A stretch of 64,000 bases of DNA from an uncultured Hormoscilla sp. (GTDB lineage: Bacteria; Cyanobacteriota; Cyanobacteriia; Cyanobacteriales; Desertifilaceae). The position numbers and the translations under genes are program-made. Each line of letters begins with the position of its first letter. The stretch's first letter is position 1. Shown in pieces: positions 1,352-62,932 of this stretch. The stretch lies in NCBI GenBank assembly GCA_963921275.4, contig OZ001293.3, forward strand, positions 800,001 to 864,000, read 5' to 3'. The notes under the pieces were generated by a model. It worked only from the letters and a program-made list of their open reading frames with translations, was not told the origin of the DNA and did not search any database.

Positions 1352-2274
1352 GTCCAGATAGATTGAAAGTCTGGTTTGGTTTCATTTGCTAGACAACTCT
1401 GGTTATCATGGGGGTTAAATTCCCTCTCCCCAGGTGTGGGGGGTCGAGAATACTACCGGTCCTTAGTGCTGCGGAGTCACATCGCCGTGGTGCTCCGCTA
1501 GGACTTAAATGTAGGGTAGCTGGCAGCCTAAGCTGGCAACACCGCGCTTGTTAGATGTTCATGGTTAGAACAAGCGAACCTGTGTAAGCCTCGTCACCTA
1601 TAACCAGCGGAATAAGGCTGATACGCTGGCCCAAAAGGGAAATGGTAGTTAGTGTTGGTAATCTGTACTTACTAGCATCGCACTCGAAGAACTCCCGGGG
1701 TATAGCAGGAACCTAAAAGCATCGAGAAATGATACCAGGGAACGAAGTAACCTCTTGTGTGCAGTTCGGCTCAACGGGGCCGAACCAGTTAGATATACGT
1801 CCGCGTAGCGTGCGCGGAGCGCATAGCGCAAGCCACGAGGGGAAGGATGTCCTAAGAAGCAAATGCCCGGGGTAATGCCCGTGGATAAGCTGACGTCGGA
1901 CGGATATGGTAAGAAGCCTTTGGTGAAAGTAGCCCTAATATGTCGCAAAACTTAGGAGAAATCCAAAAGTATGAATATGGACTAGAGTCTCAGCCGGGTA
2001 AAGTTCAGAGCCCCGATAAATCAGGAATGGGGAAATGTTAGTAAAGAGCGGTTAGACCGGTTTGCTGAACTACCCTCCGCGAACCTTCCGGAGCTGAAAT
2101 CATTAACGGTCCAATAGGATTGACCATAAGGGGTAAAATTACAGAGGGTAAGGGGAAACGGGGTGACCTAATTATTGATGATGATATGCCTAAGGACAAG
2201 CCCCAGCGGTGAAAGTCGCAAGTCCGGTTTCGCTCTTGGAGGGTTGGGAAGTGATTCCCAGCTCGACCCCGACC
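1352..2274 (+). mobile_element. ORF-less group II intron, 5'-truncated, degenerate domain V
   Basis: Near-identical over most of its length to 48632-49545; ends CTCGACCCCGACC; GTGCG start missing. Confidence 0.85.
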
Positions 2275-2573
2275 TTGACATATTGGCAAGACGCTAAGTA
2301 GTCAAACTAGGAACTACTTAGGTCCAGGGCCCAGACGAGTACCGGTCTATCCTGTGTGATGGCCAAGCCCAAGCGGCGATAAGAAGCTGCGCATCGCTTA
2401 GCGTGCGCGTAGCGCATAGCTACCTGACTTGCATGAGTAGTTGCTCATACCACAAGTCAATCTTGGTCTGTTTTGTCTAGCTCGCGCTCATGAGCAGCGT
2501 AGTAGTTAGGGCCACGGCGTTGGCGACATAAATGAATCGAGAAAAAGCTATTGGTGTAAGGAGATTAACGTTG

Positions 2574-3677
2574 ATGGAGAAAATTAAGATAGCGATCGCA
2601 GGAATAGGAAACTGTGCGAGTTCATTAATTCAAGGGATTGAATATTACAAGGGGAAAGACTTCTCTGAGGCGATCGGATTGATGCATTGGGAGATCGGCA
2701 GCTATAAGCCCTACGATATGGAAGTTGTCGCTGCCTTTGACATCGATCGCCGCAAAGTTGGGTTCGAGGTGCATGAAGCTATCTTTGCCGAACCAAACTG
2801 CACGGCTGTGTTTTGCTCCGACCTGCCCAAAACTGGAGTGAAAGTAAGTATGGGCAAGGTGCTGGATGGATTCTCGGAGCACATGAAGAATTATGAGGAT
2901 AAATATACCTTCGTCCTCAGCGACGAACCCGAACCGGAGAAAGCAGATATTGTCAAGATATTGAAAGAGTCGGGCACGGAAATCTTGCTCAATTACCTGC
3001 CAGTAGGCTCACAGGAAGCAACGGAGTTCTATGCAGAATGTGCAGTGGATGCGGGAGTAGGATTTATCAATTGCATCCCGGTGTTTATCGCTAGCAATCC
3101 CCTCTGGGCAGAGAAATTCCAACGAAACAACATACCCATCATTGGGGACGACATCAAAGCGCAACTGGGTGCCACAATTACTCACCGCACCCTATCGGAC
3201 TTGTTCAAGAAGCGGGGGGTGAAGGTAGAACGCACCTACCAGATTAATACCGGGGGCAATACTGACTTCATGAATATGCTCAACCGCAGTCGCCTGAACT
3301 CGAAGAAAGAATCCAAAACCGAGGCAGTGCAAGCGGTGATGAGCGCTCACCTGGAAAAGGAGAACATCCATATCGGTCCCAGCGATTACGTGCCCTGGCA
3401 AAAAGATAACAAGGTGGCGTTCATTCGCATGGAGGGCAAACTGTTTGGGGACGTGCCCATGAATCTGGAAATGCGTCTGTCTGTAGAAGATTCACCCAAT
3501 TCGGCGGGAGTCTCGATCGATGCCATCCGCTGCTGCAAGCTAGTCCTCAATGCCAAAAAGGGTGGTATTCTCTATTCACCTTCCGCCTATTTCATGAAGC
3601 ATCCGCCCAAACAGTATACGGATGACGAAGCTTATCGGATGACGGAGAACTTTATTGCTGGCAAGCGTGCCGATTAA
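2574..3677 (+). CDS. ino1: myo-inositol-1-phosphate synthase
   Basis: GIGNCASSLIQG, NYLPVGS, GDDIKAQLGAT, GGNTDF, EDSPNSAG motifs; RBS AAGGAG upstream of ATG 2574. Confidence 0.92.
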   Translation: MEKIKIAIAGIGNCASSLIQGIEYYKGKDFSEAIGLMHWEIGSYKPYDMEVVAAFDIDRRKVGFEVHEAIFAEPNCTAVFCSDLPKTGVKVSMGKVLDGFSEHMKNYEDKYTFVLSDEPEPEKADIVKILKESGTEILLNYLPVGSQEATEFYAECAVDAGVGFINCIPVFIASNPLWAEKFQRNNIPIIGDDIKAQLGATITHRTLSDLFKKRGVKVERTYQINTGGNTDFMNMLNRSRLNSKKESKTEAVQAVMSAHLEKENIHIGPSDYVPWQKDNKVAFIRMEGKLFGDVPMNLEMRLSVEDSPNSAGVSIDAIRCCKLVLNAKKGGILYSPSAYFMKHPPKQYTDDEAYRMTENFIAGKRAD

Positions 3678-3691
3678 GCAGTGATATCCGA

Positions 3692-23865: not shown

Positions 23866-26800
23866 ATGAAACCGGAATTGGAGCGGATTGAGGCTACATT
23901 GGCTCAAATTATAGCAGAGCAAAACAATAATGTAAAAAGGGGTGCGATTCGTTTAGTGTAAACCACCGGCGATAAGCCGACGGGGGACCACTAGCAGGGT
24001 TTCATTAGCCCTGATAACTTTTAGATGATGGTGGTGAAAGCCCACCCCTCCAGGTGCAGGAGTGAAAGCGTAACCCCTACGGTAGCGATGGCATCAATCC
24101 GTAAAGCGGGGTTAAAAGGCGCAGTAACTGGTAGCCCTTACCGGTCATCGCCAAGCAAGTAGTCATGGTGAGCGAAAGCAAAGACTCATAAGTGTCGTTA
24201 CACTAAACCAGTGAAAAGGCTGAGAAGCTGGCCCAAAAGGGAAAGGATAATGGTCATTGGCGGTTCCTTTCCCGACCAATAAGCACTGACAATAAACCCG
24301 GCATAAAGAGCCCATCTAAAACTACGACCAATCATTTAGAGGAGCGAAGTAAACCAGATACACACCCTTAACTACCGGTCGATAGGTTGAGTAGCCACCA
24401 CAGGCGCAACATCTGCTCTCATCAGGCAGGTTGTATCTGGGAAAGATTTCGCGGAGAAGCTAACGCCCGTCTGTAATGGATGGGATATGCTGACGCCCTC
24501 ACGGTAACGTCAATTGTGAAGTTGTAAGTAGCAATGCATACGTCATGAGCACGATATCAGAATCGATGAATGAATGGAAGGATATCCCCTGGCCTCGGCT
24601 GGAGCGGGTAGTCTTTAAGTTGCAAAAGCGAATTTACAGAGCGGCAATGGAAGGCGTAATAAGCGACCAGTTCGCAGACTCCAAAGGTTACTGGTAAAAT
24701 CCCGGGCTGCCAAAAGTCTAGCGGTACGACAGGTAACACAAGATAACCAGGGAAAGAAAACGGCGGGAGTGGACGGTGTTAAAGCACTGACCCCGAAGCA
24801 ACGCTTAGAACTGGTAGGACAAATTGAAATCTCAAACAAGGCCAGGCCAACACGTAGAGTATCGATTCCCAAGCCAGGGAGAGAGGAAAAGCGTCCTTTA
24901 GGAATACCAACGATGAACGACCGCGCGACACAAGGATGGGGTCGAGCCGGGAATCGCTTCCCGACCCTCCCTTGAGGAACCGGACTTGCGATTTTCACCG
25001 CATCCGGCTACTGGGTACTAGGCCCTTTTCATAGGTAGACTTAATAGGAATTACTTCCGTTAGCCCTTGCCGCCTGTCTTTTCTTCCCTTTCCTGGTTTA
25101 GCGAGTGGTTGTTCTGATAACCGTTAGTATCACCATTTTCAAGTCAGTTTTACCAGTTATCCATACCTTATCCTCCACTTGCGTTTCGGATTAGTTCCGT
25201 GGCTTTTTAGGATTACTCATTCCAGCAGCTTCCTAGTATCACCGACCCACGTCAGCGCTGGCTACCCAGCATCATCTACATTACTGTAGATGTTATCCCA
25301 GGAATTACCCCGGGCATTCGCTTCTTGGGCCATCCCTCCCCCCGTGGCTTGCGCTTAACATCTAACTTGTCCTGATGGACAGCACACGAGAGGTTACTTC
25401 GTTCCCTAACAACATTTCGCGATACCTTTAGGTCCACACTATACCCCGGGAGCTATTTGAGTACTATATTAGCCAGAGTCTAAAACTAATACTAGCTACC
25501 ATTTCCTTTTTAGGCCAGCGCATATAGCCTTATTTCGCTGGTTCCTTATAACGAGGCTTGCACATGTTTGCCTGCTCTAACCTTGGATATCTTTCCTAGC
25601 GGCGTCACCGGCTTAGGCTGCCAGTTATCCTACATTTGAGTCCTCGCTTAGCACCACGATGATGTCGCTTCGTAGCACCGAGGACCGGTGTCACCCCCGT
25701 ACCTGGGGGGAGGGGAATTTAACCCCCATGCGGTCAGAGTTCCTGGCTAATGAAACCGGGCTAGCGTTCCGTGTTTGACCACGTTAGGCTAGAACGAATC
25801 GCACGGATGGGGTCGAGCCGGGAATCGCTTCCCGACCCTCCCTTGAGGAACCGGACTTGCGATTTTCACCGCATCCGGCTACTGGGTACTAGGCCCTTTT
25901 CATAGGTAGACTTAATAGGAATTACTTCCGTTAGCCCTTGCCGCCTGTCTTTTCTTCCCTTTCCTGGTTTAGCGAGTGGTTGTTCTGATAACCGTTAGTA
26001 TCACCATTTTCAAGTCAGTTTTACCAGTTATCCATACCTTATCCTCCACTTGCGTTTCGGATTAGTTCCGTGGCTTTTTAGGATTACTCATTCCAGCAGC
26101 TTCCTAGTATCACCGACCCACGTCAGCGCTGGCTACCCAGCATCATCTACATTACTGTAGATGTTATCCCAGGAATTACCCCGGGCATTCGCTTCTTGGG
26201 CCATCCCTCCCCCCGTGGCTTGCGCTTAACATCTAACTTGTCCTGATGGACAGCACACGAGAGGTTACTTCGTTCCCTAACAACATTTCGCGATACCTTT
26301 AGGTCCACACTATACCCCGGGAGCTATTTGAGTACTATATTAGCCAGAGTCTAAAACTAATACTAGCTACCATTTCCTTTTTAGGCCAGCGCATATAGCC
26401 TTATTTCGCTGGTTCCTTATAACGAGGCTTGCACATGTTTGCCTGCTCTAACCTTGGATATCTTTCCTAGCGGCGTCACCGGCTTAGGCTGCCAGTTATC
26501 CTACATTTGAGTCCTCGCTTAGCACCACGATGATGTCGCTTCGTAGCACCGAGGACCGGTGTCACCCCCGTACCTGGGGGGAGGGGAATTTAACCCCCAT
26601 GCGGTCAGAGTTCCCGGCTAATGAAACCGGGCTAGCGTTCCGTGTTTGACCACGTTAGGCTAGAACGAATCGCACGGACTCCTCAAGATTACGCTCGAAC
26701 CTGAATGGGAGGCGTATATGAAAGGGAACTCCTACGGGTTCAGACCGGGTAGGGGATGTCACGATGCAATCCAGGCAATATTTGATAGCATCAGATATAA

Positions 26801-28837
26801 ACCCAAGTGGGTAATGGATGCTGATATTGCAAAATGCTTCGATAAGATTGACCACAAAGCGCTAATGAAAAAATTAAATACAACGTCACCAATCCGTAAG
26901 CAAATACGGGCATGGTTAAAAGCCGGGGTGATGGACAAAGGAGAATGGCATGCAACCGAAGCGGGAACTCCCCAAGGGGGAGTCATATCACCACTACTAG
27001 CCAACATAGCCTTACATGGGTTAGAGGAGGCAGTAAAGGAACTCGCCAGGACACAAAGGGAAAAGCAAAAGCTGACGGTAATCAGGTATGTTGATGACTT
27101 TGTGATAATACATGAAGATAGGGAGATAATAGACAGAGCGCAGACAGTGGTGGCAAAGTGGCTAAAGGGAATGGGGCTAGAGTTGAAAGCCGAAAAGACA
27201 AAAATAACTCATACGCTAAAGGGAGAAAAACCGGGATTTGATTTCCTGGGGTTCAACATAAGGCAATATGAGACGGGTAAATACAGAGCCAACAAATCAC
27301 CCCAAGGAATACCCCTAGGGTTCAAAACCCTAATCAAACCCAGTAATAAGTCCGTAGGTAAGCATAAAGAACGGTTATCAGAAATGGTCGCCAGCCATAA
27401 AGCAACACCACAGACAGCCTTGATAAGTAGGCTAAACCCGATAATACGGGGATGGTCAAACTATTACAGAACTGTGGTGAGTAAGGAAACTTACAGCGAC
27501 ATGGATAACTACCTATGGAACATCCTATGGCAATGGGCCAAAAGGAGACATCCCAAAAAGTCAAGTCACTGGATAGCCCGTAAGTACTGGTCTAAAGACC
27601 AGGGTGGTAAATGGCGATTCCGATGCAAGACAGGAGAGGGAGAGATAACGCTGTGCAAACATACTGAGATAATCAGACAAGTAAAAGTAAAAGGCACAGC
27701 AAGCCCATACGATGGGAACCTTACATATTGGAGTACGAGATTAGGCAAAAGCCCCGAACTGAGCAAGAGAGTGGCAACAGTATTGAAGAGGCAAAAGGGA
27801 AAATGTCAATACTGCGGATTAACGTTTATGGACAGTGACAAATGAGAAGTTGACCAGATCAAGCTTCTTTCATTAGCTTACCATTACTCGCATAATTCTT
27901 TACAATCTTAAAACCCTTATGGTACAAAGATTCTGAGACTTAGCATCCTCAACGGGGTTGACAAAAATCCCGACCTCTTTCTTGATAAATTATTTAATTT
28001 ATTGAGAATGACTTAGGAAGTAATCAGGGTTTCACCCCCCATAGTGGCCACAGAGAGAAATGTTAAGAAATATGTGAGTAAAGCATAGTTTCATTAGGGG
28101 GTAAGGACCGGTATGACAACCTACAGTTGCTGCACAAGCATTGCCACGATATAAAGACTGCCAGCGATGGCAGCAAAAACAGCCGTACCCATGACAAAGG
28201 TGGCGTTACTGAGGAGCCGGATGACGCGAAAGTGTCAAGTCCGGTTCTGAAGACGAGTCGAGGTGGTGACACCCTGGCTTAGTTTAATTCCGCTATTCAG
28301 AAAAATCAGACCTACTCCTTTGACTTACTACCCAAAACCCCGCCAGAAATCAAAGCGACAATCCCTCCCATACAGCCCTTGTCGCAAGAGAACCGGTCCA
28401 AGACGCCAGCACTGCCCAAGCTGAAAACTCATAGCTTTAGCTCTCATCAAAACGCAGCCAACCCATATCTGGCAATCAATCTGTTGCAAGAAATTCAGGG
28501 GGTAGTCACCGGCTGGCAGCGGGATTTGCAGCAAGTACATGCAGAAATTCAAGACCTGTACCGAGAAGGACCGATAGTGGATGGCTGGTTAGAGTCCAAT
28601 CCGACAGGAGGAGGTAAGCTTGATGTGGCAGCGGGCTATCGCCTGTGCAGACTAGAGTCCAACGGCAAGTTGTGGTTCTGTCCCTGTCCTCCAGACCAGG
28701 TGGCCACTGTCTCGGTGGCGATCGCCCGCTATCATCAGCTGCGACAACTGCTCAGTCGCAAGCAAGATCTGGAATCTCGTCTGACCCAATTATCTGAAGC
28801 CTTGGTAATTTTGCACGGGCAACTGCGTGAAGCATAG
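23866..28837 (+). CDS. Conserved hypothetical gene split by an RT-type group II intron (exon 1 23866-23941, exon 2 about 28290-28837); probably inactivated
   Basis: MKPELERIEATL before the intron; open frame after it leading into GPIVDGWLES. Confidence 0.6.
24934..25804 (-). mobile_element. ORF-less group II intron (871 nt), tandem copy A
   Basis: Starts GTGCGATTCG on - strand; canonical D5 AGCCGGATGCGGTGAAAATCGCAAGTCCGGTT. Confidence 0.92.
25805..26675 (-). mobile_element. ORF-less group II intron (871 nt), tandem copy B
   Basis: Head-to-tail duplicate; removing both copies restores RT sequence DRATQ|GLLKITLEPEW. Confidence 0.92.
27877..28088. mobile_element. 212-bp MITE
   Basis: 9-bp TSD TTTCATTAG; imperfect 28-bp TIRs; excision restores LSLGGKDRYDNLQLLH. 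Confidence 0.85.
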
Positions 28838-34603: not shown

Positions 34604-34847
34604 ATATCAGATTAGGAGATGACAAGCGATGCGAGGAGTTCAATTTTTAACGGACCATCAAGGCCAGAAAACTGCGGCAATTGTTGACCTAAAAGAACCT
34701 AGTGGTTTTGGGCAGATATATTATCGGAATTGGGCGAACCAACAGACTTCCAGTTCTTAATCAACTCAGTCGGGGAAAAAATAGCCGTAGTCCTTGACTT
34801 CGAGAAACACGGGGAACTATGGGAAGATGTATATGATGGTCTAATTG

Positions 34848-36683
34848 GTGCGATTCGTTCTAGCCTAACGTAGTCAAACACGGAACGCTAGTCTAGGAAA
34901 CTAGAAACTCTGGTACTCATTATTGTTAAATTCCCCTCCCTCAAGTGCGGGGGTGACACCGGTCCTCAATGCGGCGGAGCCACATCGCCGTGGTGTTAAG
35001 CGAGGACTCAAATGTAGGATAGCTGGTAGCCTAAGCCGGCAACTCCGCTAGGAAAGATGTATATGGCCAGAACAAGCAAACTCATGTAAGCCTCGTAACC
35101 ATCAACCAGCGAAATAAGGCTTTAAGCGCTGGCCCAAAAGGGGAAGTAGTTAGGGCGTGTCATCAGTTAAGCCAAACAACAGTAGCAGCCAGGTAGATAG
35201 CACCCAAGAAATTCTGAGCCCTCTTATCGTAACGGGTGGCAATGGCTCGATATTGCTTGAGTTTGGCAAAAAAATTCTCAATCAAATGACGTGCTTTGTA
35301 TAGATATTTGTCATAACGGCGTTGTTCTTTTCGATTGGATTTAGGCGGAATCACAGGTTCGCATTGCTGGGCTTCAAGACGTTTCAAAACCCGTTCGTCA
35401 GCATCAGAAGCTTTGTCTGCGAGTAACGCATCAGCCTTAATATTATCAAGTAACACATCAGCCCCTTCCAAATCGTGAGCTTGACCGGCTGTTAAATGAA
35501 AACCCGTTGGGTTCCCCAATGCGTCACAGGTCGCGTGAATTTTGGTACTCAAACCCCCTTTACGGCGTCCGATGGCTTGGTCGCAATCTTTTTTTTGAGC
35601 ACCTGCACTATGTTGATGAGCCCTTTATATCGTGGCATCAATCATCGCATATTCGTTATCGGCATCGGACGCAAGTACCTTGAATACTCTTTCCCATACC
35701 CCGGATTTTGACCACCTACTATGGCGCGTATGAATTACCCTCAAGTCCCCAAATCGCTCGGGTAAGTCCCGCCAAGGTATCCCAGCTCTATATCGATACA
35801 AGACAGCATAGACAAATAAGCGGTTATCCTTAGCTGTCCCCCCCACATAACCCTCCCGACCTGGCAATAGGTCCCTGATTCTCTCCCACTGGTCATCTCT
35901 TAAAGCATAGCGACGCATTTCTCAAATTCTCCTGCTCTAACCTTTACCCTCTTAGATCACACCAATATATCCTGGTTGTCAACTCAATCATCTTGTTATA
36001 TATTTTTGGTGGGGACCCATATCGTTAATCTAACTGATGACACGCCCTAGTATTGGCTCTTTGATTTTGGGCCAATATCGTACTCAAAGAACTGCCGGGG
36101 TAAAGTGAGGGCCTAAAGACATCGTGAAATGATACCGGGGAACGAAGTAACCCTACGTGTGCTGTCCGTCAGGACCAGTCAGATGTGCGTCCGCGTAGCG
36201 TGCGCGCAGCGCATAGCGCACGCCACGTATGGGAGAGATGGCCCGAGAAGCTAATGCCTGGGCGACGTCTGGAGCATGCCGCGTCCTTCAGGACAAGAGC
36301 ATGCTCCAGACGTCGAAGGTGTCTGGAGCATGCCGTATCCCTTGCGGGAGCGCCAGCCGTGTCCTTCAGGACAAGAGCATGCGGAAGACGCCGAGTAATG
36401 CCCACGGATACGCAGACGCGGGTCGGTGATATTAGGAAACTACTGATGCAAGTAGCCTTAAGACGTCATAAGCCCGTCCATATTGTGGATGAGGAATGAA
36501 TATCAAGGGGCAAACGTGTAAGTAGCAAGGGACAACGGGAGTAATCCTTAGTAATTCTACCCATGATTTGGGCCTGATACCCAGTAGCCGTGTGCGGTGA
36601 AAGTCGCATGCACGGTTCCGTTCGCGCAGCGTGGCGCAGCCATACGGGAGGGTTGAGAAGTGATTCTCAGCTCGACCCCTAAT
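34848..36683 (+). mobile_element. ORF-less group II intron carrying an IS5 and several micro-repeats
   Basis: GTGCGATTCG start; D5 AGCCGTGTGCGGTGAAAGTCGCATGCACGGTT; ends CCCCTAAT. Confidence 0.9.
35153..36047 (-). mobile_element. IS5-family element, two-frame transposase
   Basis: TIR GGGCGTGTCATCAGTTA; TA duplication; WRDLPERFG and YKARHLIENFFAKLKQYR motifs. Confidence 0.92.
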
Positions 36684-36758
36684 CAGACGAGCGAGAAAAT
36701 GAACCTACAATTCCCTGGAAAGAAGTGAAACGATCTCTAGAATCGAAGAGGAAGTTAA

Positions 36759-36970
36759 GTGTCTGATTATCCGATCATTTTTACGCGGTCTGCTCAAAAA
36801 GAACTGAATTCACTACCAATTGAAATCAGTAGTAGACTCAGTTCCAAGATTGATGCTTTAGTCAATGAACCCCGTCCTGTTGGCTGTCTGAAGTTAAAGG
36901 GTAGACAAAACCAATGGCGAATTCGGGTTGGCGATTATCGAATAATCTACAGCATTGATGATGATACTTT
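36759..36970 (+). pseudogene. RelE/ParE-family toxin interrupted by an antisense intron (resumes at 39391)
   Basis: PRPVGCLKLKG..WRIRVGDYRIIY; continues FIIHILV after the intron. Confidence 0.8.
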
Positions 36971-39390
36971 ATTAAACTAAGCCAGTACGTCACCGTACCG
37001 ACTCGTCTTCAAAACCGGACGTGAGACTTTCACCTCATCCGGCTCCTCAGTTTCGTCATCCTTGTCATGGATACGGCCTTTGCTGCCATCCCTGGCAGAT
37101 TTATAATCATGGCAGTAGTCGTGCAGCAACTGTAGGTTGGAGTACCAGTCCTTACCTCCCAGTGAGGTTGGCAGGATGTGGTCCACTTCCCATTTGTCGC
37201 CGTCCTTAAACGTTAGTCCGCAATGCTGGCACTTGCCATCCTGCCTCTTGAGCAGGTTAATCACTCTCATGCTTACGTCCGGGCTCTTTCGTAATCTCTG
37301 GCTCCAGTAGACTAGGTTACCGTCAAGCGGGCTAGCTGTTCCCTTTACCTTTGTGTGTCTGATTATTTCAGTTTCAGAGTGCCGGATTAGCTTTATTTCT
37401 CCTTTCTTGGATTTACCGATGAACCTCCACCGGTCCTTACCGGTCATGGCCCAATAATTTTTGGCAATCCATTCGCCCGATTTATTGGGATGCCTTCTCT
37501 TTGCCCATTGCCACAGCAGCTCCCATAGGTAGCTATCCATGTCGCTGTAAGTTTCCTTACTTACCACCGTCTTGAAGTAGTTGCTCCATCCCCTTATCAT
37601 TGGGTTTAGTTTGACTATCAAGGCTGTCTGTGGTGCCGATTTATGGCGGCGAACTATCTGTGATAGTTGCTCTTTATGATTCCTAATGGATTTATCGCTA
37701 GGCTTGATTAGGGTCTTGAATCCTAGGGGGGTTCCGTTGCTGAGTTTGCCGCTTCTGTGTTTCCCTACTTTGTATTGTCGGATATTGAACCCTAGGAAGT
37801 CAAATCCGGGGTTTTCTCCTTCCAGTGTGTGGGATATCCTGGTTTTCTCGGCTTTTAGCTCTAGTCCTATTCCCTTCAACCACTCCTCAATCACTCCTTG
37901 TGCTCGCTCAATCATTGACCGGTCATCGTGCATTACCACAAAATCATCGGCGTACCTGACTATCGTTAGTTTCTTTTCCTCTCTCTTTGTGCGGGCAAGA
38001 CTCATCACTACCTTTTCCAACCCATGTAGGGCTATATTGGCTAGCAATGGTGATATTACTCCGCCTTGAGGAGTTCCGGCTTCTGTGTCCTGCCATATTC
38101 CCTGGTCCATCACCCCGGCTTTTAGCCATGCCCGTATCTATCTACGGATTGGTGATGTTGTATTCAATTTCTCTAGGAGCGCTGAGTGGTCAATTTTGTC
38201 GAAACATTTCGCAATATCCGCATCTAACACCCATTTTGGTTTCTTGTTGGTGCTGGTGAATATCGTTTCGATCGCATCGTGGCATCCCCTTCCTGGTCTG
38301 AATCCGTAGGAATTGGCTTCCATGTACGCTTCCCATTCGGGCTCAAGCGACTGTTTGACCAATCCCTGAAGTGCGCGGTCGTGCATCGTCGGTCTTCCTA
38401 GTGGCCGCTTTTCGTCCCTTCCTGGCTTAGGTATCCATACACGCAGTGTAGGTTTCGCCTTTGCCTTCCTGGATACTCTGAGCTGACTTACCAGTTCCAG
38501 TCGCTGCTCCATAGTCAGTGCTTTCACACCATCCACACCAGCCGCATTCTTTCCTTGGTTTTGTTGTGTTACCTGTCTCACCGCTATCATCTTCGTGGAC
38601 CATGACCTATTTAGTAACCCTTGGAGCTTGCGAACTTTCCGCTTGTTGCCTTCCTGTGCCGCTCTGTAAATTCGCTTTTGTAGCTTGAAGACATGGCTGG
38701 CGCCACGCTAGCGCGATCGGCGCTCCAGCTCCTGCCAGGGCACCTCCTTCCATTCATACTCTTGCTTTTCGGCTAAGTTCCGTGACATATTAACTACTAC
38801 TCACAACTTCACAATTGACAAAACCGTGAGGGCGTCAGCTTATCCCATCCATTACAGATAGGCGTTTGCTTCTCCACTCAATCTTTCCCAGCTATGACCT
38901 GCCAAATGAGAGCAGATGTTGCGTCTTTGGTGACTACTCCATCTATCGACCGGTGATGGAGAGTGCCTAGCTGGGTTACTTCGTTCCTACAGATGATTAA
39001 TCGTAGTTTTAGATGGATTCTATATGCCGGGTTTGTTGTCAGTGCTTATTAGTCGGATTACAACCGCTAATGACCATTATCCTTTCCCTTTTGGGCCAGT
39101 GTCTCAGCCTTATTACACTGGTTGATGTTGACGACACTTATGAACCTTTGCTTGCGCTCATCATGACTACTTGCTCGACGATGACCGGTTTAGGCTACCA
39201 GTTAGAGCGCCTTTCCTTCCCGCTTTACGGATTGATGCCATCGCTACCGTCGGGAGGATGCTGTCACGAGAGCACATGGAGGGGTGGGCTTTCACCACCA
39301 TCATCTGTAAGTTGTCAGGGCTATTGAAACCCTGCTAGCGGTCCCCTTTCTTGACACGTGTCAAGTCATTTTACCCTAAACGAATCGCAC
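36971..39390 (-). mobile_element. Group II intron with RT ORF
   Basis: GTGCGATTCG at 39390; D5/D6 ending GTTTAAT; EBS1 TGTAAT pairs with exon end ATTATA. Confidence 0.92.
36977..38788 (-). pseudogene. ltrA: Group II intron RT/maturase/HNH with two premature stops
   Basis: YADD and HNH intact; TAG inside a 24-nt micro-insert near 38710 and TAG at 38138-38140. Confidence 0.9.
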
Positions 39391-41411: not shown

Positions 41412-43499
41412 TCAGACAAAGTTAATTTGTAGTAAAGATAAATCATCATTTAAGGCTTCTTTAGCGCTCAAATTCTTGATGTGTTGTAACACCAGATCTA
41501 GATTATTGGTGTGGTTGGGCGGTTCGAGGACGCTCACCGCAAGTGGCTGGGATGCCAGTAAATTAGTGAAAGCATCTAGACTCCAAATGCTGCCATCAGA
41601 CTGACAAATCTCGTAAGCTCCATCGCTGAAAACATAGAGGGTGCTGTTGGCGACAATCTGACATTGATAAGAGACATATTCAGCTTCGGGGAACATACCT
41701 ACCGGAAGACCGGGAGTTTTCAGGCTTTGAACTTGGTTGTCTTTTCCCTGGTTCGGAGAAAGTAAGATGGCTGGTGGATGACCTGCGCTCACGTAAACCA
41801 GTTTGCTATCGCTCTGGTTATAGGTCGGGGTCGAGCTGGGAATCACTCCCCAACCCTCCAAGAGCGAAACCTGAAGAGCGACTGGAACCGCACACGGCTA
41901 CTGGTTGGTAAGCTGTTGTCATCAGTAGGATTACTGGGGGTTACCCCCGTTGTCCCTTACCCTTTGAAATTTTACCCCTTATGGTCAATCCTATTGGACC
42001 GTTTAAGTACTGAGCTGCGGAAGGTTCGCGGAGGATAGTTCAGCAAACCATACTCGCCGCTCTTTACTAACATCTTCCCCATTCTGCTTTCCGCTTTTCG
42101 TAAGGGCTCTGAACTTTACCTGGCTAAGATTTGAATCCAAAATTCGTACTTTCGGAATTTCTCCCTAGTTCTGTGACATTAAGGTTACTTTTCCCAAGGG
42201 TGTCTTACCATATCCGTCCTACGTCTGCATATCCACAGGCATTACCCTGGGCGTTAGCTTCTTAGGACATCCTTCTTCTTCGTGGCTTGCGCTTTACATT
42301 TAACTTGTCCAAATGGGGACAGCTCACGAGAGGTTACTTCGTTCCCTAGTATCATTTCACGATGCTTTTAGGTTCCTACTATACCCCGGGAGTTCTTTGA
42401 GTACGTTATTAGCCAGAGGCAAGAGCTAATACTAACTACCATTTCCCTTTTTGGGCAAGCGCATAAGCCTTCTTCCGCTGGTTCAGGTTAACGAGGTTTA
42501 CATAGGTTCGCTTGTTCTAACCATTAGCATCTTTCCTAGCGGCGTCACCGGCTTAGGCTGCCAGTTATCCTACATTTAAGTCCTCGGGAGGCACCACGGC
42601 GATGTGGCTCCGTAGCACCTCCGACCGGTAGTACCCTCGACCCCCGTACCTGGGGAAAGGGAATTTAACCCCCATGATAACCAGAGTTATCTGGCTGATA
42701 GAGCCAGACCCGACTTTCACCTACTGGCTTATGCCGGAACGAATCGCACTACCTCATACCAGATGGTAAAGTATTTATCGGTTTGGGTATTCATCTGAAA
42801 TTTGTCATTTAATGCAGTCAGAACCCGAGCGGGTTCTGAGAAATTGACGCCAGAAAGGGATTGCGATCGCAACACATTCAGCACCGAAACTGATAACAGG
42901 GCTGAGCCTACCCCATGACCGGCGGCGTCTACTACATAAATCACCAACTCATGGGAGTTTAACCAGTAGTAATCAAAGCAATCTCCTCTTAGCTGCCGCG
43001 AGGGGATAAACCGGGCATCGATCGTCACCTTTCCGGTTAAGGAAGAGGGCAGGAGACTGCGGACATAATCAGCAGCCTCGGCCAATTCTGCCTCCATAAT
43101 TTTCTTGGCGGTTTGCAAATCTTGGTTCAGCTGGTGCAACCGGAGTCCAGCTCTCACCTTGGCCCTTAACTCATTCATCTCCACAGGCTTAGAGAGAAAA
43201 TCATCCGCCCCCGTATCCAGTCCTTCAACCCGGTCCTCTACCCCTTCCCGGGCTGTCAACAGTACAAAAAATGTTGTCGCCAATTCCGGATCCGCTTTAA
43301 TGTGATGACAGACTTCCAGTCCATCCATGCGAGGCATCATCCAGTCACACAGGATCAGCGCCGGTCTAATTTCTCGGGCTTGTTGCAATCCCTCTTCGCC
43401 GTTGGCTGCCACCATGACATCGTATCCCTGATTTTTCAGTGATTTGGTCAGTACCAACCTAAACAGCGGATCATCTTCTATAATCAAAATTTGATACAT
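41412..43499 (-). CDS. Response regulator + PP2C/SpoIIE phosphatase (RsbU-like), exons 43499-42750 and 41822-41412, 386 aa if spliced
   Basis: REC domain, DAAGHG, SAGHPP, SDG, DDLS; splice junction FTIWYEV|YNQS is in frame. Confidence 0.85.
41823..42749 (-). mobile_element. ORF-less group II intron (927 nt), sense to the host gene, degenerate D5
   Basis: GTGCG start, CCCCGACC end; EBS1 TGCCTC pairs with exon end GAGGTA. Confidence 0.9.
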
Positions 43500-44685: not shown

Positions 44686-46683
44686 GAGGCTGTTTGAAAA
44701 GTTTGTGAAGGTATAAAATTAAGCTAAGGGTCGGACCAGAAGTCGAATCATAGCAATATAGACCATCACATAGGGATGTTTACCGAAGGTGTTCATAATC
44801 TTTGCTCAGTCTACGACACCAATTGAGCCAGCCAAAAGTCCGTTCAACAACGAGCGCGTTTTTTGAGCAATACAAACTCTCTTCGGGCCGCAGCACAACA
44901 AGAACAACCCAGCGCAATGTATCCATGACCCATTGCAGAAAAGGATTACCGCACTCCGCCCCCATCGACCCAAATTAAATTTTGACGACTGACTTTCTCG
45001 CCCATAAGCTTGAACTTTCTCCAATACCTGTTGTCCCCCCGATGCTTTCTCGTTCTGGAACACGCTTCTGCCGTCACCAAAACGCGCAAGACCGATAATT
45101 AATCAATCAGTCCCTTAACCTTTTTGCCTGCATCAAAACCAACTATGGCTGCGCCCCCAGCGCATCGCGTAGCGTAGCGATAGCGTGCAGCCATGCGCTA
45201 ACGGAATGCACCATTGTATCAGTGGCAACACTTTGGCTATCCAGAATCGCGAAGGCAAGGACTTTCCTCACGACCAGCAGCAACGCGGGTCCAACTGTGT
45301 AATAGATCCCTAATAGCGTAGTGCCTAAGAGGTGCCAATGGAGAAAATAAGTGTAAACCCTTTGCCAAGCAGGAAAATCTCAAGGGTTCGTCCCGCCATT
45401 TACATCCTTGGGTAACCACATAAAAAATGGCATAATCGACGGATCACATACAGACTTGGAGGGGCAGTATCACTTGCCGATGTCTCCCGGGTTTTCGCCG
45501 TGCGTCCGGGAGACATCGGAATGCGTGATAATATTTTAGATCACGCAATTGTCTTGTGATACTGGGACGGCCTCCCGGTTTCGCCGTTCGATGTCCCCCA
45601 GAGGGGACGCGCTATTCGCACTACCCCAGAGACATCGCGGAATCAGTGGTTCAATCAATTCATACTAGGGCGTGTCATCAGTTAAGCCAAACAACAGTAG
45701 CAGCCAGGTAGATAGCACCCAAGAAATTCTGAGCCCTCTTATCGTAACGGGTGGCAATGGCTCGATATTGCTTGAGTTTGGCAAAAAAATTCTCAATCAA
45801 ATGACGTGCTTTGTATAGATATTTGTCATAACGGCGTTGTTCTTTTCGATTGGATTTAGGCGGAATCACAGGTTCGCATTGCTGGGCTTCAAGACGTTTC
45901 AAAACCCGTTCGTCAGCATCAGAAGCTTTGTCTGCGAGTAACGCATCAGCCTTAATATTATCAAGTAACACATCAGCCCCTTCCAAATCGTGAGCTTGAC
46001 CGGCTGTTAAATGAAAACCCGTTGGGTTCCCCAATGCGTCACAGGTCGCGTGAATTTTGGTACTCAAACCCCCTTTACGGCGTCCGATGGCTTGGTCGCA
46101 ATCTTTTTTTTTGAGCACCTGCACTATGTTGATGAGCCCTTTATATCGTGGCATCAATCATCGCATATTCGTTATCGGCATCGGACGCAAGTACCTTGAA
46201 TACTCTTTCCCATACCCCGGATTTTGACCACCTACTATGGCGCGTATGAATTACCCTCAAGTCCCCAAATCGCTCGGGTAAGTCCCGCCAAGGTATCCCA
46301 GCTCTATATCGATACAAGACAGCATAGACAAATAAGCGGTTATCCTTAGCTGTCCCCCCCACATAACCCTCCCGACCTGGCAATAGGTCCCTGATTCTCT
46401 CCCACTGGTCATCTCTTAAAGCATAGCGACGCATTTCTCAAATTCTCCTGCTCTAACCTTTACCCTCTTAGATCACACCAATATATCCTGGTTGTCAACT
46501 CAATCATCTTGTTATATATTTTTGGTGGGAACCCATATCGTTAATCTAACTGATGACACGCCCTAGTCAAGGGGACGATTACTGGTGTATGCGCTCGCGT
46601 CATGGCTCACAGAGGGCTACTGAGTTCGTATCGGACGCATACGTGAGCTTTTTTACTCCCCTTTTCACTTTTCAAACAGCCTC
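44686..46683 (-). mobile_element. Decayed IS5-family (IS1031-like) element hosting another IS5 and micro-repeats
   Basis: TIR GAGGCTGTTTGAAAAG; TAA duplication; VVERTFGWLNWCRRLSKDYE. Confidence 0.85.
45668..46563 (-). mobile_element. IS5-family element, near-identical to 35153-36047
   Basis: Same TIR and TA duplication; one extra base in the slippery run. Confidence 0.92.
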
Positions 46684-48372: not shown

Positions 48373-51300
48373 ATGGAGCAGCAAAAACGAAAACCCCAGA
48401 CTAACCAATTCCCACTAGACGCACCAGTTAGCCTCCCCGTGTTCTTCAGGACTTACAGCCGGCGCACAGCCGACGGCAAACGCGAATCCTGGAAAGATGT
48501 GTGCGATCGGGCGATCGCAGGTTTAACCGAGTTAGGCAAACTAACCCCGAAAGAATCAGACCTGCTCTACCGGATGCAGCTACAGCTGAAAACACTGTCT
48601 TCTGGCAGATGGTTGTGGATAGGAGGTACAGGTGCGATTCGTTCAGGCGTAAACCGGTAACGGAGAAAGCCTGACTGGCATCATTAGCCAGAAACTCTGG
48701 ATATCATGGGGGTTAAATTCCCTCTCCCCAGGTGTGGGGGTAACACCGGTCCTTAGTGCTGCGGAGTCACATCGCCGTGGTGCGGAGCTAGGACTTAAAT
48801 GTAGGGTAGCTGGCAGCCTAAGCTGGCAACACCGCTAGGAAAGATGTTCATGGTTAGAACAAGCGAACCTGTGTAAGCCTCGTCACCTATAACCAGCGGA
48901 ATAAGGCTGATACGCTGGCCCAAAAGGGAAATGGTAGTTAGTGTTGGTAATCTGTACTTACTAGCATCGCACTCGAAGAACTCCCGGGGTATAGCAGGAA
49001 CCTAAAAGCATCGAGAAATGATACCAGGGAACGAAGTAACCTCTTGTGTGCAGTTCGGCTCAACGGGGCCGAACCAGTTAGATGTAAAGCGCAAGCCACG
49101 AGGGGAAGGATGTCCTAAGAAGCAAATGCCCGGGGTAATGCCCGTGGATAAGCTGACGTCGGACGGATATGGTAAGAAGCCTTTGGTGAAAGTAGCCCTA
49201 ATATGTCGCAAAACTTAGGAGAAATCCAAAAGTATGAATATGGACTAGAGTCTCAGCCGGGTAAAGTTCAGAGCCCCGATAAATCAGGAATGGGGAAATG
49301 TTAGTAAAGAGCGGTTAGACCGGTTTGCTGAACTACCCTCCGCGAACCTTCCGGAGCTGAAATCATTAACGGTCCAATAGGATTGACCATAAGGGGTAAA
49401 ATTACAGAGGGTAAGGGGGAAACGGGGTGACCTAATAACCCTACTGATGACAACAGCTTACCAACCAGTAGCCGGATGCGGTGAAAGTCGCAAGTCCGGT
49501 TTCGAAAGGGAGGGTTGGGAAGTGATTCCCAGCTCGACCCCGACCAGTGGATTAAGCAACCTGAAAATTTTCCTGGTGCTTATAATTGTTCATCAACTAA
49601 TATCCTTGACTGGCGATCGTTTGGTTTGTTAATGGATTTGGCCATGATGGGTTGTGGGACTGGTGCGGTTCTCGAACCCCGCTACATCAATCAACTACCA
49701 CCCATTCGCAATCACCTGAAGGTGAAACTTTGGGGCAAAATTGGCGCAACTTCACCAGCAATGCGACGGGAAGAAACTGAGGTGAAAATATCCGGGAACA
49801 AGGTAATAATTTACGTCGGCGACTCTCGCCAAGATTGGGTAGCTTCCTATCAATCTCTGTTAGAATTATCCACTGAAGAGCGATTTACCGACTCAGTGGA
49901 GGTTGATATTGATTTGAGTGATGTTCGCCCAGCTGGGGAACATCTCAAAGGCTTTGGTGGTGTAGCAAATCCAGTGAAATTACCAGTTCTGTATCAACGC
50001 TGTGCAGGGATATTAAATAAAGCTGTCGGACGGCAATTAAATTCCGTGGAATGCAGTTTGTTGATTGATGAAGCAGCCGTGACGATCGTGGCAGGCAATA
50101 TTAGGCGCAGCGCGGGGATTCGTCAATTTGCCTTTGATGATGAATTGGGTGGCAATGCTAAGAATAATCTCTGGCAACAAGATGAAAATGGTAACTGGCG
50201 CATAGACCCCGATCGGGATGCCTTGCGGATGGCAAATCATACCCGGATATTCCACCACAAGCCAACCTTAGAAGAATGTATTGCAGCAGTTCGCAAGCAG
50301 TATTATAGCGGCGAAGGGGCAATTCAATGGGCTGGAGAAGCGATCGCCCGTGCCAATGCAGATCTGCTCAGCAGTTACGAACATAAAACTGACTTTTTAG
50401 CTGCCTACGATCGTGGCGAAGGCGAACAATGGTTGCAGGAAAAATACCCGCAGCTATCGGATGAAGAACGACAGCATCGTTTAGCCCGACTTGGATTAAA
50501 CCCGTGCTTGAGCGACGATACTTGGATTCTTACGGAAAACGGTGCTCAAAAAATCAAAGACTTGTTAGGTAAGCAAGTTGGACTATTTGTTAATGGGGAG
50601 TTATTTTCGACCACAAAGGAAGGATTTTACCAGACTGGTGTTAAGCTTCTTTATCGTTTAACCACAAAGGAAGGTTACGAAATCCGAGCCACTGACAACC
50701 ATCCATTCCTTAAAATTACCGCCCAAACGCAGAAAAAACAATACAGCGAATGGACAGAGCTTAAGGACTTGTCAGTGGGCGACCGTGTTTCTATCCACAA
50801 TCATAAGGGCATTCAACCCTGGTACGGTGACGGAACTTTTGGTGAAGGATGGCTGCTCGGCAGTCTTGTTGGCGATGGCTGTTTTTCGGTCAACGAAAAA
50901 AATTACCAACGAGCGGCTGTACTTCGTTACTGGGGAGGCAATCAAGCTCAAATGGCTGATTATGCAGTGGCGCTTATTGGAAAGGAGCTTGGTTCACAAC
51001 TTGCTTCTATTGCTCTCCCACGCAACCAGTACACCCAAGTGGGAGGGGCGGCGTTGTATGAGCTGGCGGAGCGGTTTGGGATGAAGCAACGTCACAAAAC
51101 TGTGACGGATGCAGTTGAACGAGCGAGCTACGATTTCTATCGTGGCTTTTTGCAGGGCTTCTTCGACGCTGATGGTGGCGTGCAAGGTTGTCAACTAACG
51201 GGAGTCTCTGTCCGCTTAGCTCAAAGCGATCTGGATGTGTTAAAGGCTGTTCAACGAATGTTATTGCGGCTAGGTGTTGCTTCAAGTCTTTATCGGTGCC

Positions 51301-52697
51301 GCCGCCCCGTATCCCTGCGGGACGCGCAGGGCATACACCGGGTTTTACTGCCCGATGGTAAGGGTGGGCAGAAACTTTATGACTGCAAAGAGCAGCACGA
51401 ACTGATTGTTGCTCGCACCAATCTTAAGGAGTTTCACGCGGTTGTCGGATTCAGCGACCCCGACAAAAAGGCAAAACTTGACGCTGCACTGTCAGGCTAC
51501 AAACGTCGATTAAACTGCGAGGGTTTCACTGTGACGGTCTCCAGTATTGAGTTTGACGAAATTGAGCCTGTTTACGATTGTACTGTCCCTGGGGTGTCTC
51601 GTTTTGATGCCAATGGGTTTGTTGTTCACAATTGCGGTGAAATCATCGGGGCGAATTTTTTCTGTAATTTGTCAGAGATTCACCTGAATCAAATTGACCC
51701 GCATAACTACCAGGAACAGGCTGACGCTTTCACCGCTGGGGCCCTTTCGGTGGCGACGCTGCTGAATCATAAATTTGTTGAACCTCGCTACCGGGACAGT
51801 CGGGAATTAGACCCAATTGTGGGCGTGTCTTTCACAGGACTGTTTGATTTCTTTGTTAATGCTTTTGGGGTTGATTGGTTACACTGGTGGGCAGAAGGAC
51901 GCCCTCAAACTGCAGGCGGTTTGGAGTATAAGCAGCGGGAGATAGAATATCTGAGTCGCTGGAAAGAGATCGTACATCGGGTGGTGTGGGATTATTGCGA
52001 TCGCCATTCCTTAAAATGCCCAAATCGCTGTACAACCTGTCAGCCTTCTGGCACGAAATCTCTACTCACAGGCGCTTCCCCAGGATGGCATCCCCCTAAA
52101 GCCCAACGCTTTATTCGGCGGGTTACATTTGCCAAAAACGACCCCGTAGCGCTAGCTTGTATTGACTATGGTTATAATGTGGTTCCTTCTCAGTCAGATA
52201 AAGACGAAAATGGCAATCTTTTGCATGACCCATTTTCTCCCCTGTGCAGTGAATGGCTAGTAGAAATACCTGTGGCTGTACCTTGGGCTGATTTGCCCGG
52301 GGCTGATGCAATTGACATTGCTAAATTTAGTGCGATCGCTCAAATGGATTTCTACTTGACGGTGCAGCGTTACTGGACTACTCACAATTCTTCTGCCACC
52401 ATTGAACTGCGGGAAAACGAAATCGAAGCTTTAGGGACTCGCATCTATGAGGCGATCGCCCTTGATGAAGGATACATCTCAGCTGCCCTGCTAGCGAGGT
52501 TTGACGACCATCAGAGTTTCCCGCGCTTGCCATTTGAGCCCATTGACAAGCAGCAGTATGATAAGCTGATGAAAGAAGTCCAGATGCGACGCCAGTCAGA
52601 TGATTTTCAGGCGGCTTTGAGTCGCTATGATTCAGGCTACGCAGCAGTTGGCCCCGCCGGGTGTGACTCGGATAAATGTCTGTTTCCGCGCCCTTAG
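48373..52697 (+). CDS. nrdJ: Adenosylcobalamin-dependent ribonucleotide reductase, exons 48373-48631 and 49546-52697, 1136-aa precursor including intein
   Basis: VFFRTYSR, SGRWLWIGGT-E-W junction, NP|CGEI, QPSGTKS, C-terminal CDSDKC. Confidence 0.95.
48632..49545 (+). mobile_element. ORF-less group II intron (914 nt) in nrdJ
   Basis: GTGCG start, ACC end; EBS1 CTGTAC pairs with IBS1 GTACAG and EBS2 CCTAT with ATAGG; canonical D5. Confidence 0.95.
50505..51632 (+). mobile_element. 376-aa intein with LAGLIDADG homing endonuclease
   Basis: CLSDDT start, VHN|C end; LGSLVGDG and QGFFDADG motifs; inserted in NP^CGE. Confidence 0.95.
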
Positions 52698-61705: not shown

Positions 61706-61987
61706 GCCATCATTGCCTGTAAAAATACTCTTGGTCAGTAGGGACAACTTGCATTGTCCTGCTGTATCCCCGATGCACTTCGATGTCTCCGGAGAGCGCT
61801 AAAAGCACTACTTCGGAGACATCGAGGGATAGTGCGTGTATGATGTCCCTCGGGTTTCGCTGTGCATCCGGGGACATCAAGCGCCCCTATTGCATCGAAG
61901 AGGAGCGCTACACGCACTACCCCGGGGATACAGGGTGATGGTCTAGATTGTTAGATTAACGCACGTGGGTATATTGTGTAAAGAGTA

Positions 61988-62932
61988 GTGCGATTTGTTC
62001 CGACATAAACCTATAAGGGTGAAAGTCGGGTCTGGTTTCATTAGCCAGATAACTTTGGTCATCATAGGGGTTAGATTCCCCTCCCCCAGGTGCGGGGTGA
62101 CACCGGTCTTCAGTGCTGCGGAGCAACATCACCGTGGTGCCGAGCGAGGACTTAAATGTAGGATAGCTCCTAGCCTAAAGGAGTGACTCTGCTAGGAAAG
62201 AGGCTCATGGTTAGAACAAGCGAATCTCTGTAAGTATCGTAAACACGAACCAGCGAAAAGGCTAATGCGCTGGCCCAAAAGGGAAAGCAGTTTGCGTATC
62301 AATGTTTGCTCTCCATTGGTATCGTACCCGAAATGACTGCCGGTATAGAGTAGAGACCTAAAAGCCTCGCGAAATGATACCAAGGAACGAAGTAACCCCC
62401 GTGGTGCTGTCCTCATTTGGACAAGTCAGATGTGCGTCCGCGTAGCGTGCGCACAGCGCATAGCGCATGCCCATGAGGGGAGAGATGGCCCGAGAAGCTA
62501 ATGCCTAGGCGGTGTCTGGAGCATGCCTTGGTGTCTGGAGCACACCAAAGTCCTTCAGGACAAGAGCATGCGGAAGACGCCGGTAATGCCTATGGATACG
62601 CAGACGCGGGTCGGTGATACTAGTAAACTATTGGTACAAGTAGCTCTAAAATGTCATAAGCCCATTTACAGCGTTAGCGAAAGCGAGTTGAGGATTGAGG
62701 AATGTTTAACTGGTAAAACGGAGTGTTAAATGGTGATACTAAAGGTTATCCGGCAGCTCCACTCACCAACCAGGAAAGGGGCGGACGTGCAAGTAGTAAG
62801 GGACAATGGGAGTAATCCCTAGTAATCCTACCCGTGAAAGGGGCCTAGTACCCAGTAGCCGTGTGCGGTGAAAGTCGCATGCACGGTTCCGAAAGGGAGG
62901 GTTGTCCCGCGAGGGACAGCTCGACCCCGACT
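61988..62932 (+). mobile_element. ORF-less group II intron, intergenic
   Basis: GTGCGATTTG start; canonical D5/D6; EBS1 TGCTCT pairs with upstream AGAGTA. Confidence 0.9.

Follow-up and report, generated by a model that had tools for sequence, protein, structure and literature searches.

Nine group II introns, seven of them without an open reading frame, in a 64-kb chromosome piece of a cyanobacterium related to Hormoscilla: exon-binding sites match the insertion sites

The 64,000-nt stretch of DNA analyzed here (the window), a chromosome piece of a filamentous cyanobacterium related to Hormoscilla, carries exactly nine copies of group II introns, named I1–I9 and located in window coordinates. 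Seven copies lack an open reading frame (ORF), and two contain reverse-transcriptase genes, i.e., genes of an intron-encoded protein (IEP); together, the nine copies cover 12,312 of the 64,000 bases (19%). We consider it very likely that the window has been colonized by a diversified family of group II intron retroelements with diverged exon-binding sites (EBS), whose ORF-less members would be served by distantly encoded IEPs. Two intron lineages are present, and the IEP of the ORF-containing one is composed of reverse-transcriptase, maturase, DNA-binding, and HNH endonuclease parts.

The copies were found by an Rfam scan, then by reading for GTGYG starts, and then by aligning the elements; an nhmmer search of the whole window with profiles of both lineages adds no element to the nine, which is also the number given in the initial annotation. 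The Rfam model of domains V and VI (DV/DVI), RF00029, has a gathering cut-off of 40 bits, and six of the nine copies exceed it (I2, I3, I4, I6, I8, and I9; 44.4–58.5 bits, E from 1.9e-5 to 6.3e-9). DV of I2 and I6 also passes the plastid DV model RF04357 (55.7 bits for I2 at 28211–28288, the segment that matches RF00029). I5 stays below the cut-off, with the DV part only; I1 and I7, in both of which DV is unfolded, have no RF00029 match in the window scan and are recognized as decayed members through 80–92% identity to I8. The 5′ start GTGCGATT(C/T)GTT is seen in eight of the nine copies (GTGCG 5′ ends), and DV/DVI folds with a bulged A are obtained for I8, I9, I3/I4, I5, I2, and I6 (z from −2.5 to −5.1; −5.08 for I2 and −3.15 for I9). 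The RF00029 matches, the GTGCG ends, the DV/DVI folds, and the IEP domains confirm that the nine elements are group II introns. They form two lineages, the ORF-containing one (I2, I6) and the ORF-less one of approximately 0.9 kb (I1, I3, I4, I5, I7, I8, and I9; 871–945 nt, with I5 longer through inserts), which have domains I to III (DI–DIII) and DV in common.

The EBS1 hexamer occupies positions 4–9 of an 11-nt loop, which a conserved 7-bp stem closes, and pairs with positions −6 to −1 of the exon, the first intron-binding site (IBS1). All 133 cells of the closing stem are standard pairs across 19 distinct stem-loops from the window and related genomes (4 of 23 were omitted for differing length), with compensatory changes on both sides at pairs 1, 2, 3, 4, and 6, i.e., at five of the seven. 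Positions 4–9 of the loop are hypervariable; positions 3, 10, and 11 are fixed. Each of the seven EBS1/exon pairs proposed in the initial annotation is present as given when rescored in the window (Table 1), the weakest being that of I5, where the loop has 13 nt instead of 11 and the register is uncertain. EBS2 is formed by the 5 nt preceding a conserved AACCAG and pairs with exon positions −13 to −9.

The specificity of pairing was assessed for 21 distinct ORF-less intron/site combinations out of 27 copies from the window and related loci. Two of the remaining copies lack the loop, three are duplicates, and I4 was omitted since its 5′ flank is another intron; EBS1 of I5 was placed by hand at the register of the initial annotation. 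For EBS1, the mean is 5.52 of 6 pairs with the cognate exon and 2.66 with non-cognate exons; for EBS2, the respective values are 4.24 and 2.25 of 5. When the exons were shuffled 100,000 times against the introns, the observed total was never reached, either for EBS1 or for EBS2. For the five usable window copies alone, only the identity permutation attains the total (820 of 100,000 shuffles, or approximately 1/120). Full EBS2 pairing (5/5) is seen for I3 with its 5′ flank and for I5 (CCATC/GATGG), and I9 pairs at 6/6 in EBS1 and 5/5 in EBS2, wobble counted. In the ORF-containing lineage, EBS1 pairs at 5–6 of 6 positions, GU counted, in all four copies considered (I2, I6, and the related L011 and L012). 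The identity of these loops, for which folding had been named as the possible refutation, is thus upheld: as shown by the stem with its compensatory changes and by the covariation with exon ends, they are EBS1. A match of each copy to its own site in both EBS1 and EBS2 is the pattern that would be expected of retrohoming by reverse splicing after EBS divergence.

Two introns interrupt host genes whose reading frames fix the splice boundaries. Removal of I8 from nrdJ (exon 1 ends at 48631) yields an open frame of 1157 codons, and an intron end at 49544 or 49546 brings a stop within 3 to 28 codons. The predicted spliced junction RWLWIGGT/EWIKQPENF (the slash marks the exon boundary) recurs unchanged in two intron-free proteins, P0001 (NrdJ from Hormoscilla sp. 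SP5CHS) and P0003; protein identity to the intron-free orthologues is 90%. PDB look-ups retrieve nothing relevant for exon 1 and, for exon 2, match 1l1l from residue 150 only; hence, the junction is settled by the orthologues. The exons of the phosphatase gene split by I7 are in frame only if exon 2 begins at 41822, and the joined product is identical to intron-free P0260 at 380 of 386 residues (98.4%). From these two genes, the 3′ splice site of the ORF-less lineage is placed 8 nt after the branch A. The alternative at A + 7, where the Rfam match ends, was rejected, as it gives early stops in both genes. The A + 8 rule also fits I3/I4, whose flanks then rebuild the codons TQG/LLK of the I2 IEP gene, and the small ORF around I5. 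The ORF-containing lineage appears to end at A + 7, which would fit how the enolase motif is spaced on the two sides of the L012 intron in Hormoscilla. Gene annotation yields only fragments of nrdJ and of the phosphatase gene unless these coordinates are used to take the introns out.

Insertion appears to be recent and continuing, since the intron-free orthologues of the nrdJ and phosphatase products are 90–98% identical and I3 and I4 are one base apart. Decay proceeds in parallel: I1 is a fragment, I5 was hit by an insertion sequence (IS), and the IEP gene of I2 would have been killed by antisense I3/I4. I1, I5, and I7 are regarded as decayed copies on structural grounds. The homology of I1 begins near 1357 rather than at 1352, with approximately 25–28 nt of the 5′ end gone (its nhmmer match 1357–2273 corresponds to model positions 25–885); it is 92.5% identical to I8, and the 5′ strand of its DV is damaged, so that no DV hairpin is seen in the fold. 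In I5, an 895-nt IS (35153–36047, TA duplication) with a DDE_Tnp_1 domain immediately precedes the EBS1 stem, and DV is separated from DVI by a GC-rich insert. In I7, the loop and the 3′ strand of DV are scrambled; no hairpin forms, and the fold is no better than those of shuffled sequences (z = +0.39).

The two IEP genes of the window are also defective. The I2 ORF (26718–27845) has RVT_1 and GIIM domains, and the gene is dead: it is frameshifted, split by the nested I3/I4, and has a stop and an insertion in the endonuclease part. The I6 ORF (38788 to 36977) is of full length with RVT_N, RVT_1, GIIM, and HNH all present, and is interrupted by in-frame TAG codons at 38708–38710 and 38138–38140, one of which arrived with a short GC-rich insert. 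The initial description of seven ORF-less introns and two dead reverse-transcriptase genes hence holds under the standard code.

A relic graveyard, i.e., nine old and immobile remains in a decaying, transposon-rich region where nothing moves now, would explain the structurally dead I1, I5, and I7, the two local IEP pseudogenes, the IS copies and broken toxin–antitoxin genes of the region, and the fact that 21 of the 27 IEP sequences found on the contig discussed below are shorter than 588 aa. We consider it improbable, as I3 and I4 differ at one of 871 positions, the intron-free orthologues are at 90% (nrdJ) and 98.4% (phosphatase) protein identity, nrdJ is fully open across its junction, and six full-length IEPs exist.

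The latter are found outside the window. In the protein collection, two proteins encoded in the window (P0002, the NrdJ ORF, and P0197, the I2 ORF) are assigned to a contig 6,879,066 nt long. Among the best 120 of 6,929 IEP homologues, 17 clusters (37 sequences) are assigned to a single contig of this length, and the window can supply only about three of them. Eight of these clusters comprise 27 distinct IEP sequences; six are full-length (588–596 aa) and have RVT_N, RVT_1, GIIM, and HNH. One homologue, P0122, is 92% identical to the I6 IEP. An intact four-domain IEP is thus seen in neither window copy, in six proteins of the 6,879,066-nt contig, and in L012 of Hormoscilla.

A 22-nt motif present in all seven ORF-less copies was scanned against reference genomes, one per species, where it occurs in at least 15 places; all 15 among the matches listed are in three Hormoscilla genomes, and the window's contig is not among the matches listed. 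In these Hormoscilla loci (278 kb), only mobile elements match the window, at 75–97%, and nhmmer finds 38 intron segments, 25 of which begin at model positions 1–3. Some of the Hormoscilla introns are in housekeeping genes: one, which encodes an intact IEP of 598 aa, interrupts the enolase gene, and dnaN is interrupted as well. The larger genome-wide swarm that the initial annotation deduced from the intron density is supported by the 17 IEP clusters and by Hormoscilla genomes full of such introns. Its opposite, a lone hotspot, is not what is seen: the window explains only a small part of these clusters, and nested copies occur in Hormoscilla. The pairing of Hormoscilla with group II introns was not encountered in the literature searched.

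Two of the nested arrangements are of interest in themselves. In Hormoscilla sp. GUM202 (L008, 9846–11641), a complete intron on the opposite strand interrupts an ORF-less one near model position 320, immediately ahead of the EBS1 stem of the latter; in Hormoscilla sp. GM7CHS1pb (L007, 6292–8433), an intron lies on the same strand in the domain IV (DIV) region of another, forming a sense-strand twintron.

Pairwise identity of the ORF-less copies is 65.5–92.5%, except for I3/I4 (99.9%), and relatives of I3/I4 and of I9 are seen in Hormoscilla loci at 89–92% identity. By this divergence, the ORF-less family is judged older than that of Thermosynechococcus, and it splits into at least three apparent subfamilies: I8/I1/I7, I3/I4, and I5/I9. 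The first of these retains the IEP start codon and about 13 codons (MSQNLGEIQKYEY vs. MSRNLVERQEYEW), with approximately 80% DNA identity to I6 (as counted in the alignment). Long matches to I6 in DI are at 66–68% identity, and short blocks at 74–81%. Apart from the 13-codon remnant and the DV-encoded tail, a blastx comparison of the ORF-less copies with six IEPs gives no better match than E = 0.38. At least one ORF-less subfamily is thereby assigned an origin from an ORF-containing intron through ORF deletion. Better conservation of the start remnant than of DI (80% vs. 66–68%) would fit a deletion that kept the surrounding DIVa region; DIVa is the main maturase binding site in other introns, such as Ll.LtrB.

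The IEP frame itself extends beyond DIV, running through DV into DVI in I6 (36971–37047), I2 (28211–28288), and L012 (2074–3870). In I6, the RF00029 match includes the TAG stop codon (36977–36979), the A of which forms the branch-point bulge of the centroid fold. The tail encoded by DV/DVI (EEPDEVKVSRPVLKTSR.GD.LA) ends six full-length IEPs of the 6.88-Mb contig and the L012 IEP of Hormoscilla. A literature search brought up nothing specific on IEP ORFs overlapping DV.

By analogy with Thermosynechococcus and Trichodesmium, the ORF-less copies would be unable to move, or probably to splice efficiently, alone, and would depend on IEPs from intact ORF-containing introns elsewhere on the same chromosome. 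The initial annotation had proposed a maturase encoded elsewhere or none; the former is the better supported half of this alternative, because six full-length four-domain IEPs exist on the contig. Alternatively, the ORF-less introns could do without a maturase, either splicing by themselves or relying on a host factor, and the distant IEPs would then play no role for them. This would agree with the long distance to the ORF-containing lineage in DI, with the lack of an IEP-coding remnant past 13 codons in the blastx comparison, and with one self-splicing ORF-less bacterial intron, in a genome without an IEP, that a review cites. We regard it as unlikely: I8, I1, and I7 keep the IEP start region, with the putative DIVa maturase site, better than the rest of the intron; according to the same review, bacteria seldom have ORF-less introns, and those that occur are almost always found together with related introns that encode an IEP; and splicing in trans has been demonstrated in Trichodesmium (PMC4649490).

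Several observations weigh against colonization by an EBS-diverged family served by distant IEPs. The EBS2 register fails for I2 (1/5) and for L012 (1/5, GU counted), and the 5′ flank of I4 pairs with only two of six EBS1 bases, so that pairing leaves some junctions unexplained. The best column for EBS3, GGGGTA[N]AGT, pairs in 12 of 16 copies (nine Watson–Crick); having been chosen as the best of approximately 1000 alignment columns, this candidate is tentative and not convincing. The start-codon remnant is clear in I8, I1, and I7 only, and I3, I4, I5, and I9 show weak likeness there. Given 65–92.5% identity among ORF-less copies and 66–68% in the DI matches to I6, recognition by the surviving IEPs would not be assured. 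That the IEP clusters and the window share a contig is suggested by the identical length of 6,879,066 nt, not by coordinates. Finally, impairment is seen in four of the nine (in I1, I5, and I7, and in the IEP gene of I2), and to this extent the window is read as partly a graveyard.

I3 and I4, which differ by one mismatch in 871 nt, abut head to tail with zero bases between them; what flanks I4 on its 5′ side is thus the end of I3. The pair sits antisense within RT-domain codons of the I2 IEP gene (TQG/LLK) and hence cannot be spliced from its transcript. The most likely origin of the tandem, judged by its flanks, is re-homing: a second copy would have reverse-spliced into the occupied site, whose 5′ exon still has IBS2 and IBS1. 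The newcomer would be offered 5/5 pairs in IBS2 and 5/6 in IBS1, and in the target-site selections reported for Thermosynechococcus no 3′-exon base was chosen or required (PMC2882425), hence an occupied site could stay a target and its re-invasion is a plausible source of I3/I4. A plain tandem duplication, by unequal recombination or by slippage on the shared TCC, is a serious possibility, if not the one we favor. It would account for the perfect register without an intervening base, for the TCC that ends both the 5′ exon and the intron, and for the poor match of the I4 5′ flank to its own EBS1 (as above) and EBS2 (3/5); the IBS2 and IBS1 still present at the occupied site and the Thermosynechococcus selections speak for re-homing. 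We also considered whether antisense homing into I2-type IEP genes recurs at this site, as several IEP ORFs of the contig begin with MEGNSYGF just past the I3/I4 site; this is unsupported, as IEPs of the same cluster read straight across the site (MYDRATQGLLK...). Nothing specific on head-to-tail group II introns surfaced in the literature search.

The phosphatase gene around I7 is otherwise intact, save for a Glu in place of the junction Gly conserved in five aligned orthologues; with DV lost, the intron probably locks its host gene, which on this reading has probably been freshly inactivated. The Glu is the penultimate codon of exon 1 (42750–42755), and the five orthologues have Gly there (WYGVY). 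The change from Gly to Glu turns a U–G wobble with the EBS1 of I7 into a U–A pair; it could have arisen by chance while the gene was dying, or the exon could have adjusted to the intron. That this DV-less intron, in an open gene 98.4% identical to its intron-free orthologue, is still spliced, with DV and maturase provided in trans by its siblings, is highly improbable. If true, bacteria would offer a natural example of a catalytic RNA that is shared and acts in trans, a step toward a spliceosome-like division of labor; spliceosomal introns are presumed to descend from group II introns.

The kind of phenomenon observed here is already known from Thermosynechococcus, Trichodesmium, and Arthrospira; what is new is the lineage, how old and widespread the family appears to be, the head-to-tail pair in antisense orientation, and an open gene that contains an intron without DV. 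The closest comparison is with TeI3/TeI4 of Thermosynechococcus elongatus, as described by Mohr, Ghanem and Lambowitz (2010; PMC2882425). In both cases, a single cyanobacterial genome has many related copies, more of them ORF-less than ORF-containing, and the ORF-less ones are seemingly derived from an ORF-containing intron; families are set by diverged EBS1 and EBS2 fitted to sites, as well as by EBS3, which is tentative here; introns enter the IEP genes of other introns; some copies are fragments or have a mispaired DV; and insertions are mostly intergenic. The copies analyzed here are far more diverged (65–92.5%, compared to 85–100% identity for TeI3/TeI4), the nested pair is antisense to the IEP gene, unspliceable from it, and a head-to-tail tandem, and the IEP ORF runs through DV into DVI, whereas the legend of Figure 2 of that paper places the stop codon in DIV.

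Similar to Trichodesmium erythraeum, as reported by Pfreundt and Hess (2015; PMC4649490), who cite Liu et al. (2003) and Meng et al. (2005), the introns occur in protein-coding genes, including a ribonucleotide reductase gene that also has inteins; in that genome, 10 of 17 spliced introns are without an ORF and are thought to rely on a trans maturase. Unlike in Trichodesmium, most copies here are intergenic or within other mobile elements; the likeness of nrdJ concerns the kind of gene interrupted. Arthrospira platensis, which leads the survey of Miura et al. (2022; PMC8919778) with its 101 group II introns, is another filamentous cyanobacterium with a big intron expansion; its IEPs are of the chloroplast-like (CL) type. 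Subclass IIB of the CL lineage is a candidate placement for the introns here, with EBS2 pairing upstream of IBS1 in the ORF-less lineage, a plastid-type DV in I2 and I6, and a tentative EBS3 for the first base of the 3′ exon. As in Methanosarcina acetivorans, where introns are nested in one another (Zimmerly and Semper, 2015; PMC4424553), repeated homing would make introns standing target sites; unlike there, where the nesting in the archaeal genome is described as sense-strand and without coding exons, two intact host genes are interrupted here.

The lineage offers an old, diverged ORF-less family whose EBS1 and EBS2 covary cleanly with more than 20 sites, housekeeping genes interrupted by introns (nrdJ in the window, and the genes of enolase and DnaN in Hormoscilla), and nested and tandem copies with every stage of decay side by side. 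To our knowledge, intron multiplication, loss of the protein gene, and dependence on shared factors are known from very few bacteria. The lineage could also serve as a test of whether rules derived from a thermophile hold elsewhere, given that the host's relative Hormoscilla, unlike Thermosynechococcus, is presumably not a thermophile.

The positions, settings, and binding sites of the nine copies are listed in Table 1. The neighboring genes are ordinary cyanobacterial chromosome genes (XisI, Uma2, cobU, asd, ribBA, tamB, nrdJ) together with transposases.

Table 1. Group II intron copies of the window. EBS1/IBS1 pairing is scored as Watson–Crick + GU pairs out of 6; RF00029 scores are in bits.
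Copy	Position	Strand	Type and setting	EBS1 position	EBS1/IBS1	Score	EBS2 position	RF00029
I1	1352/1357..2274	+	decayed ORF-less; EBS1 and EBS2 both as in the nrdJ intron I8	1663-1668			1597-1601	
I2	23942..28288	+	ORF-containing; intergenic, between cobU (-) and a + strand ORF	24265-24270	TCCTTT/AAAGGG	5+1		55.4
I3	25805..26675	-	ORF-less, 871 nt; upstream member of head-to-tail pair	26347-26352	AGACTC/GAGTCC	5+0	26415-26419	44.4
I4	24934..25804	-	ORF-less, 871 nt; downstream member of head-to-tail pair					44.4
I5	34848..36683	+	ORF-less; inside small antitoxin-like ORF		TGATTT/TAATTG	3+2		38.6 (DV only)
I6	36971..39390	-	ORF-containing; antisense in 3′ end of ParE-family toxin ORF 36759-36980	39057-39062	TGTAAT/ATTATA	5+1		58.5
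I7	41823..42749	-	ORF-less; splits response-regulator/PP2C phosphatase gene in frame; DV destroyed	42416-42421	TGCCTC/GAGGTA	5+1		
I8	48632..49545	+	ORF-less; in nrdJ (class II ribonucleotide reductase); intact DV/DVI	48952-48957	CTGTAC/GTACAG	6+0	48886-48890	49.3
I9	61988..62932	+	ORF-less; intergenic, between tamB (-) and DUF3110 gene (+)	62307-62312	TGCTCT/AGAGTA	5+1	62243-62247	47.9

Downstream of I8, nrdJ (49546–52697) also has an intein with a LAGLIDADG homing endonuclease (Pfam Intein_splicing, LAGLIDADG_3). With both an intron and an intein, the gene is interrupted at the RNA and at the protein level. The length of Hormoscilla NrdJ orthologues varies from 761 to 1588 aa.

I5 and I6 are adjacent to a small toxin–antitoxin pair (34381–34847 and 36684–36980), of which the antitoxin-like ORF is split by I5, and the 3′ end of the ParE-family toxin ORF (ParE_toxin, E = 4.2e-9) is cut by antisense I6. 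A second, unsplit antitoxin-like ORF fragment is found at 34381–34506. The IS of approximately 895 nt is present in two copies, the one inside I5 and another at 45668–46563, with 17-nt inverted ends and a TA target duplication; in both, the DDE_Tnp_1 transposase is broken into short ORFs.

A GC-rich 22-nt motif (CGCGTAGCGTGCGCGCAGCGCA) occurs eight times with at most three mismatches, compared to zero expected, at 1802, 2395, 23218, 36192, 47732, 53076, 57422 (minus strand), and 62439. Three occurrences, those in I1, I5, and I9, share one alignment position, and one is inside the tamB ORF. Related inserts are seen at approximately 36620–36645, between DV and DVI of I5, and at approximately 38700–38730 in the IEP gene of I6, where the insert brings a stop codon. 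By its distribution, the motif looks like a small interspersed insertion element. Repeat units starting with GTGTGCCGTATGGACCCTGGGACAAGAGCA are located at approximately 32900–33700 on the minus strand, and are loosely similar to the GTCCTTCAGGACAAGAGCATGC units, two of which are in I5 and one in I9.

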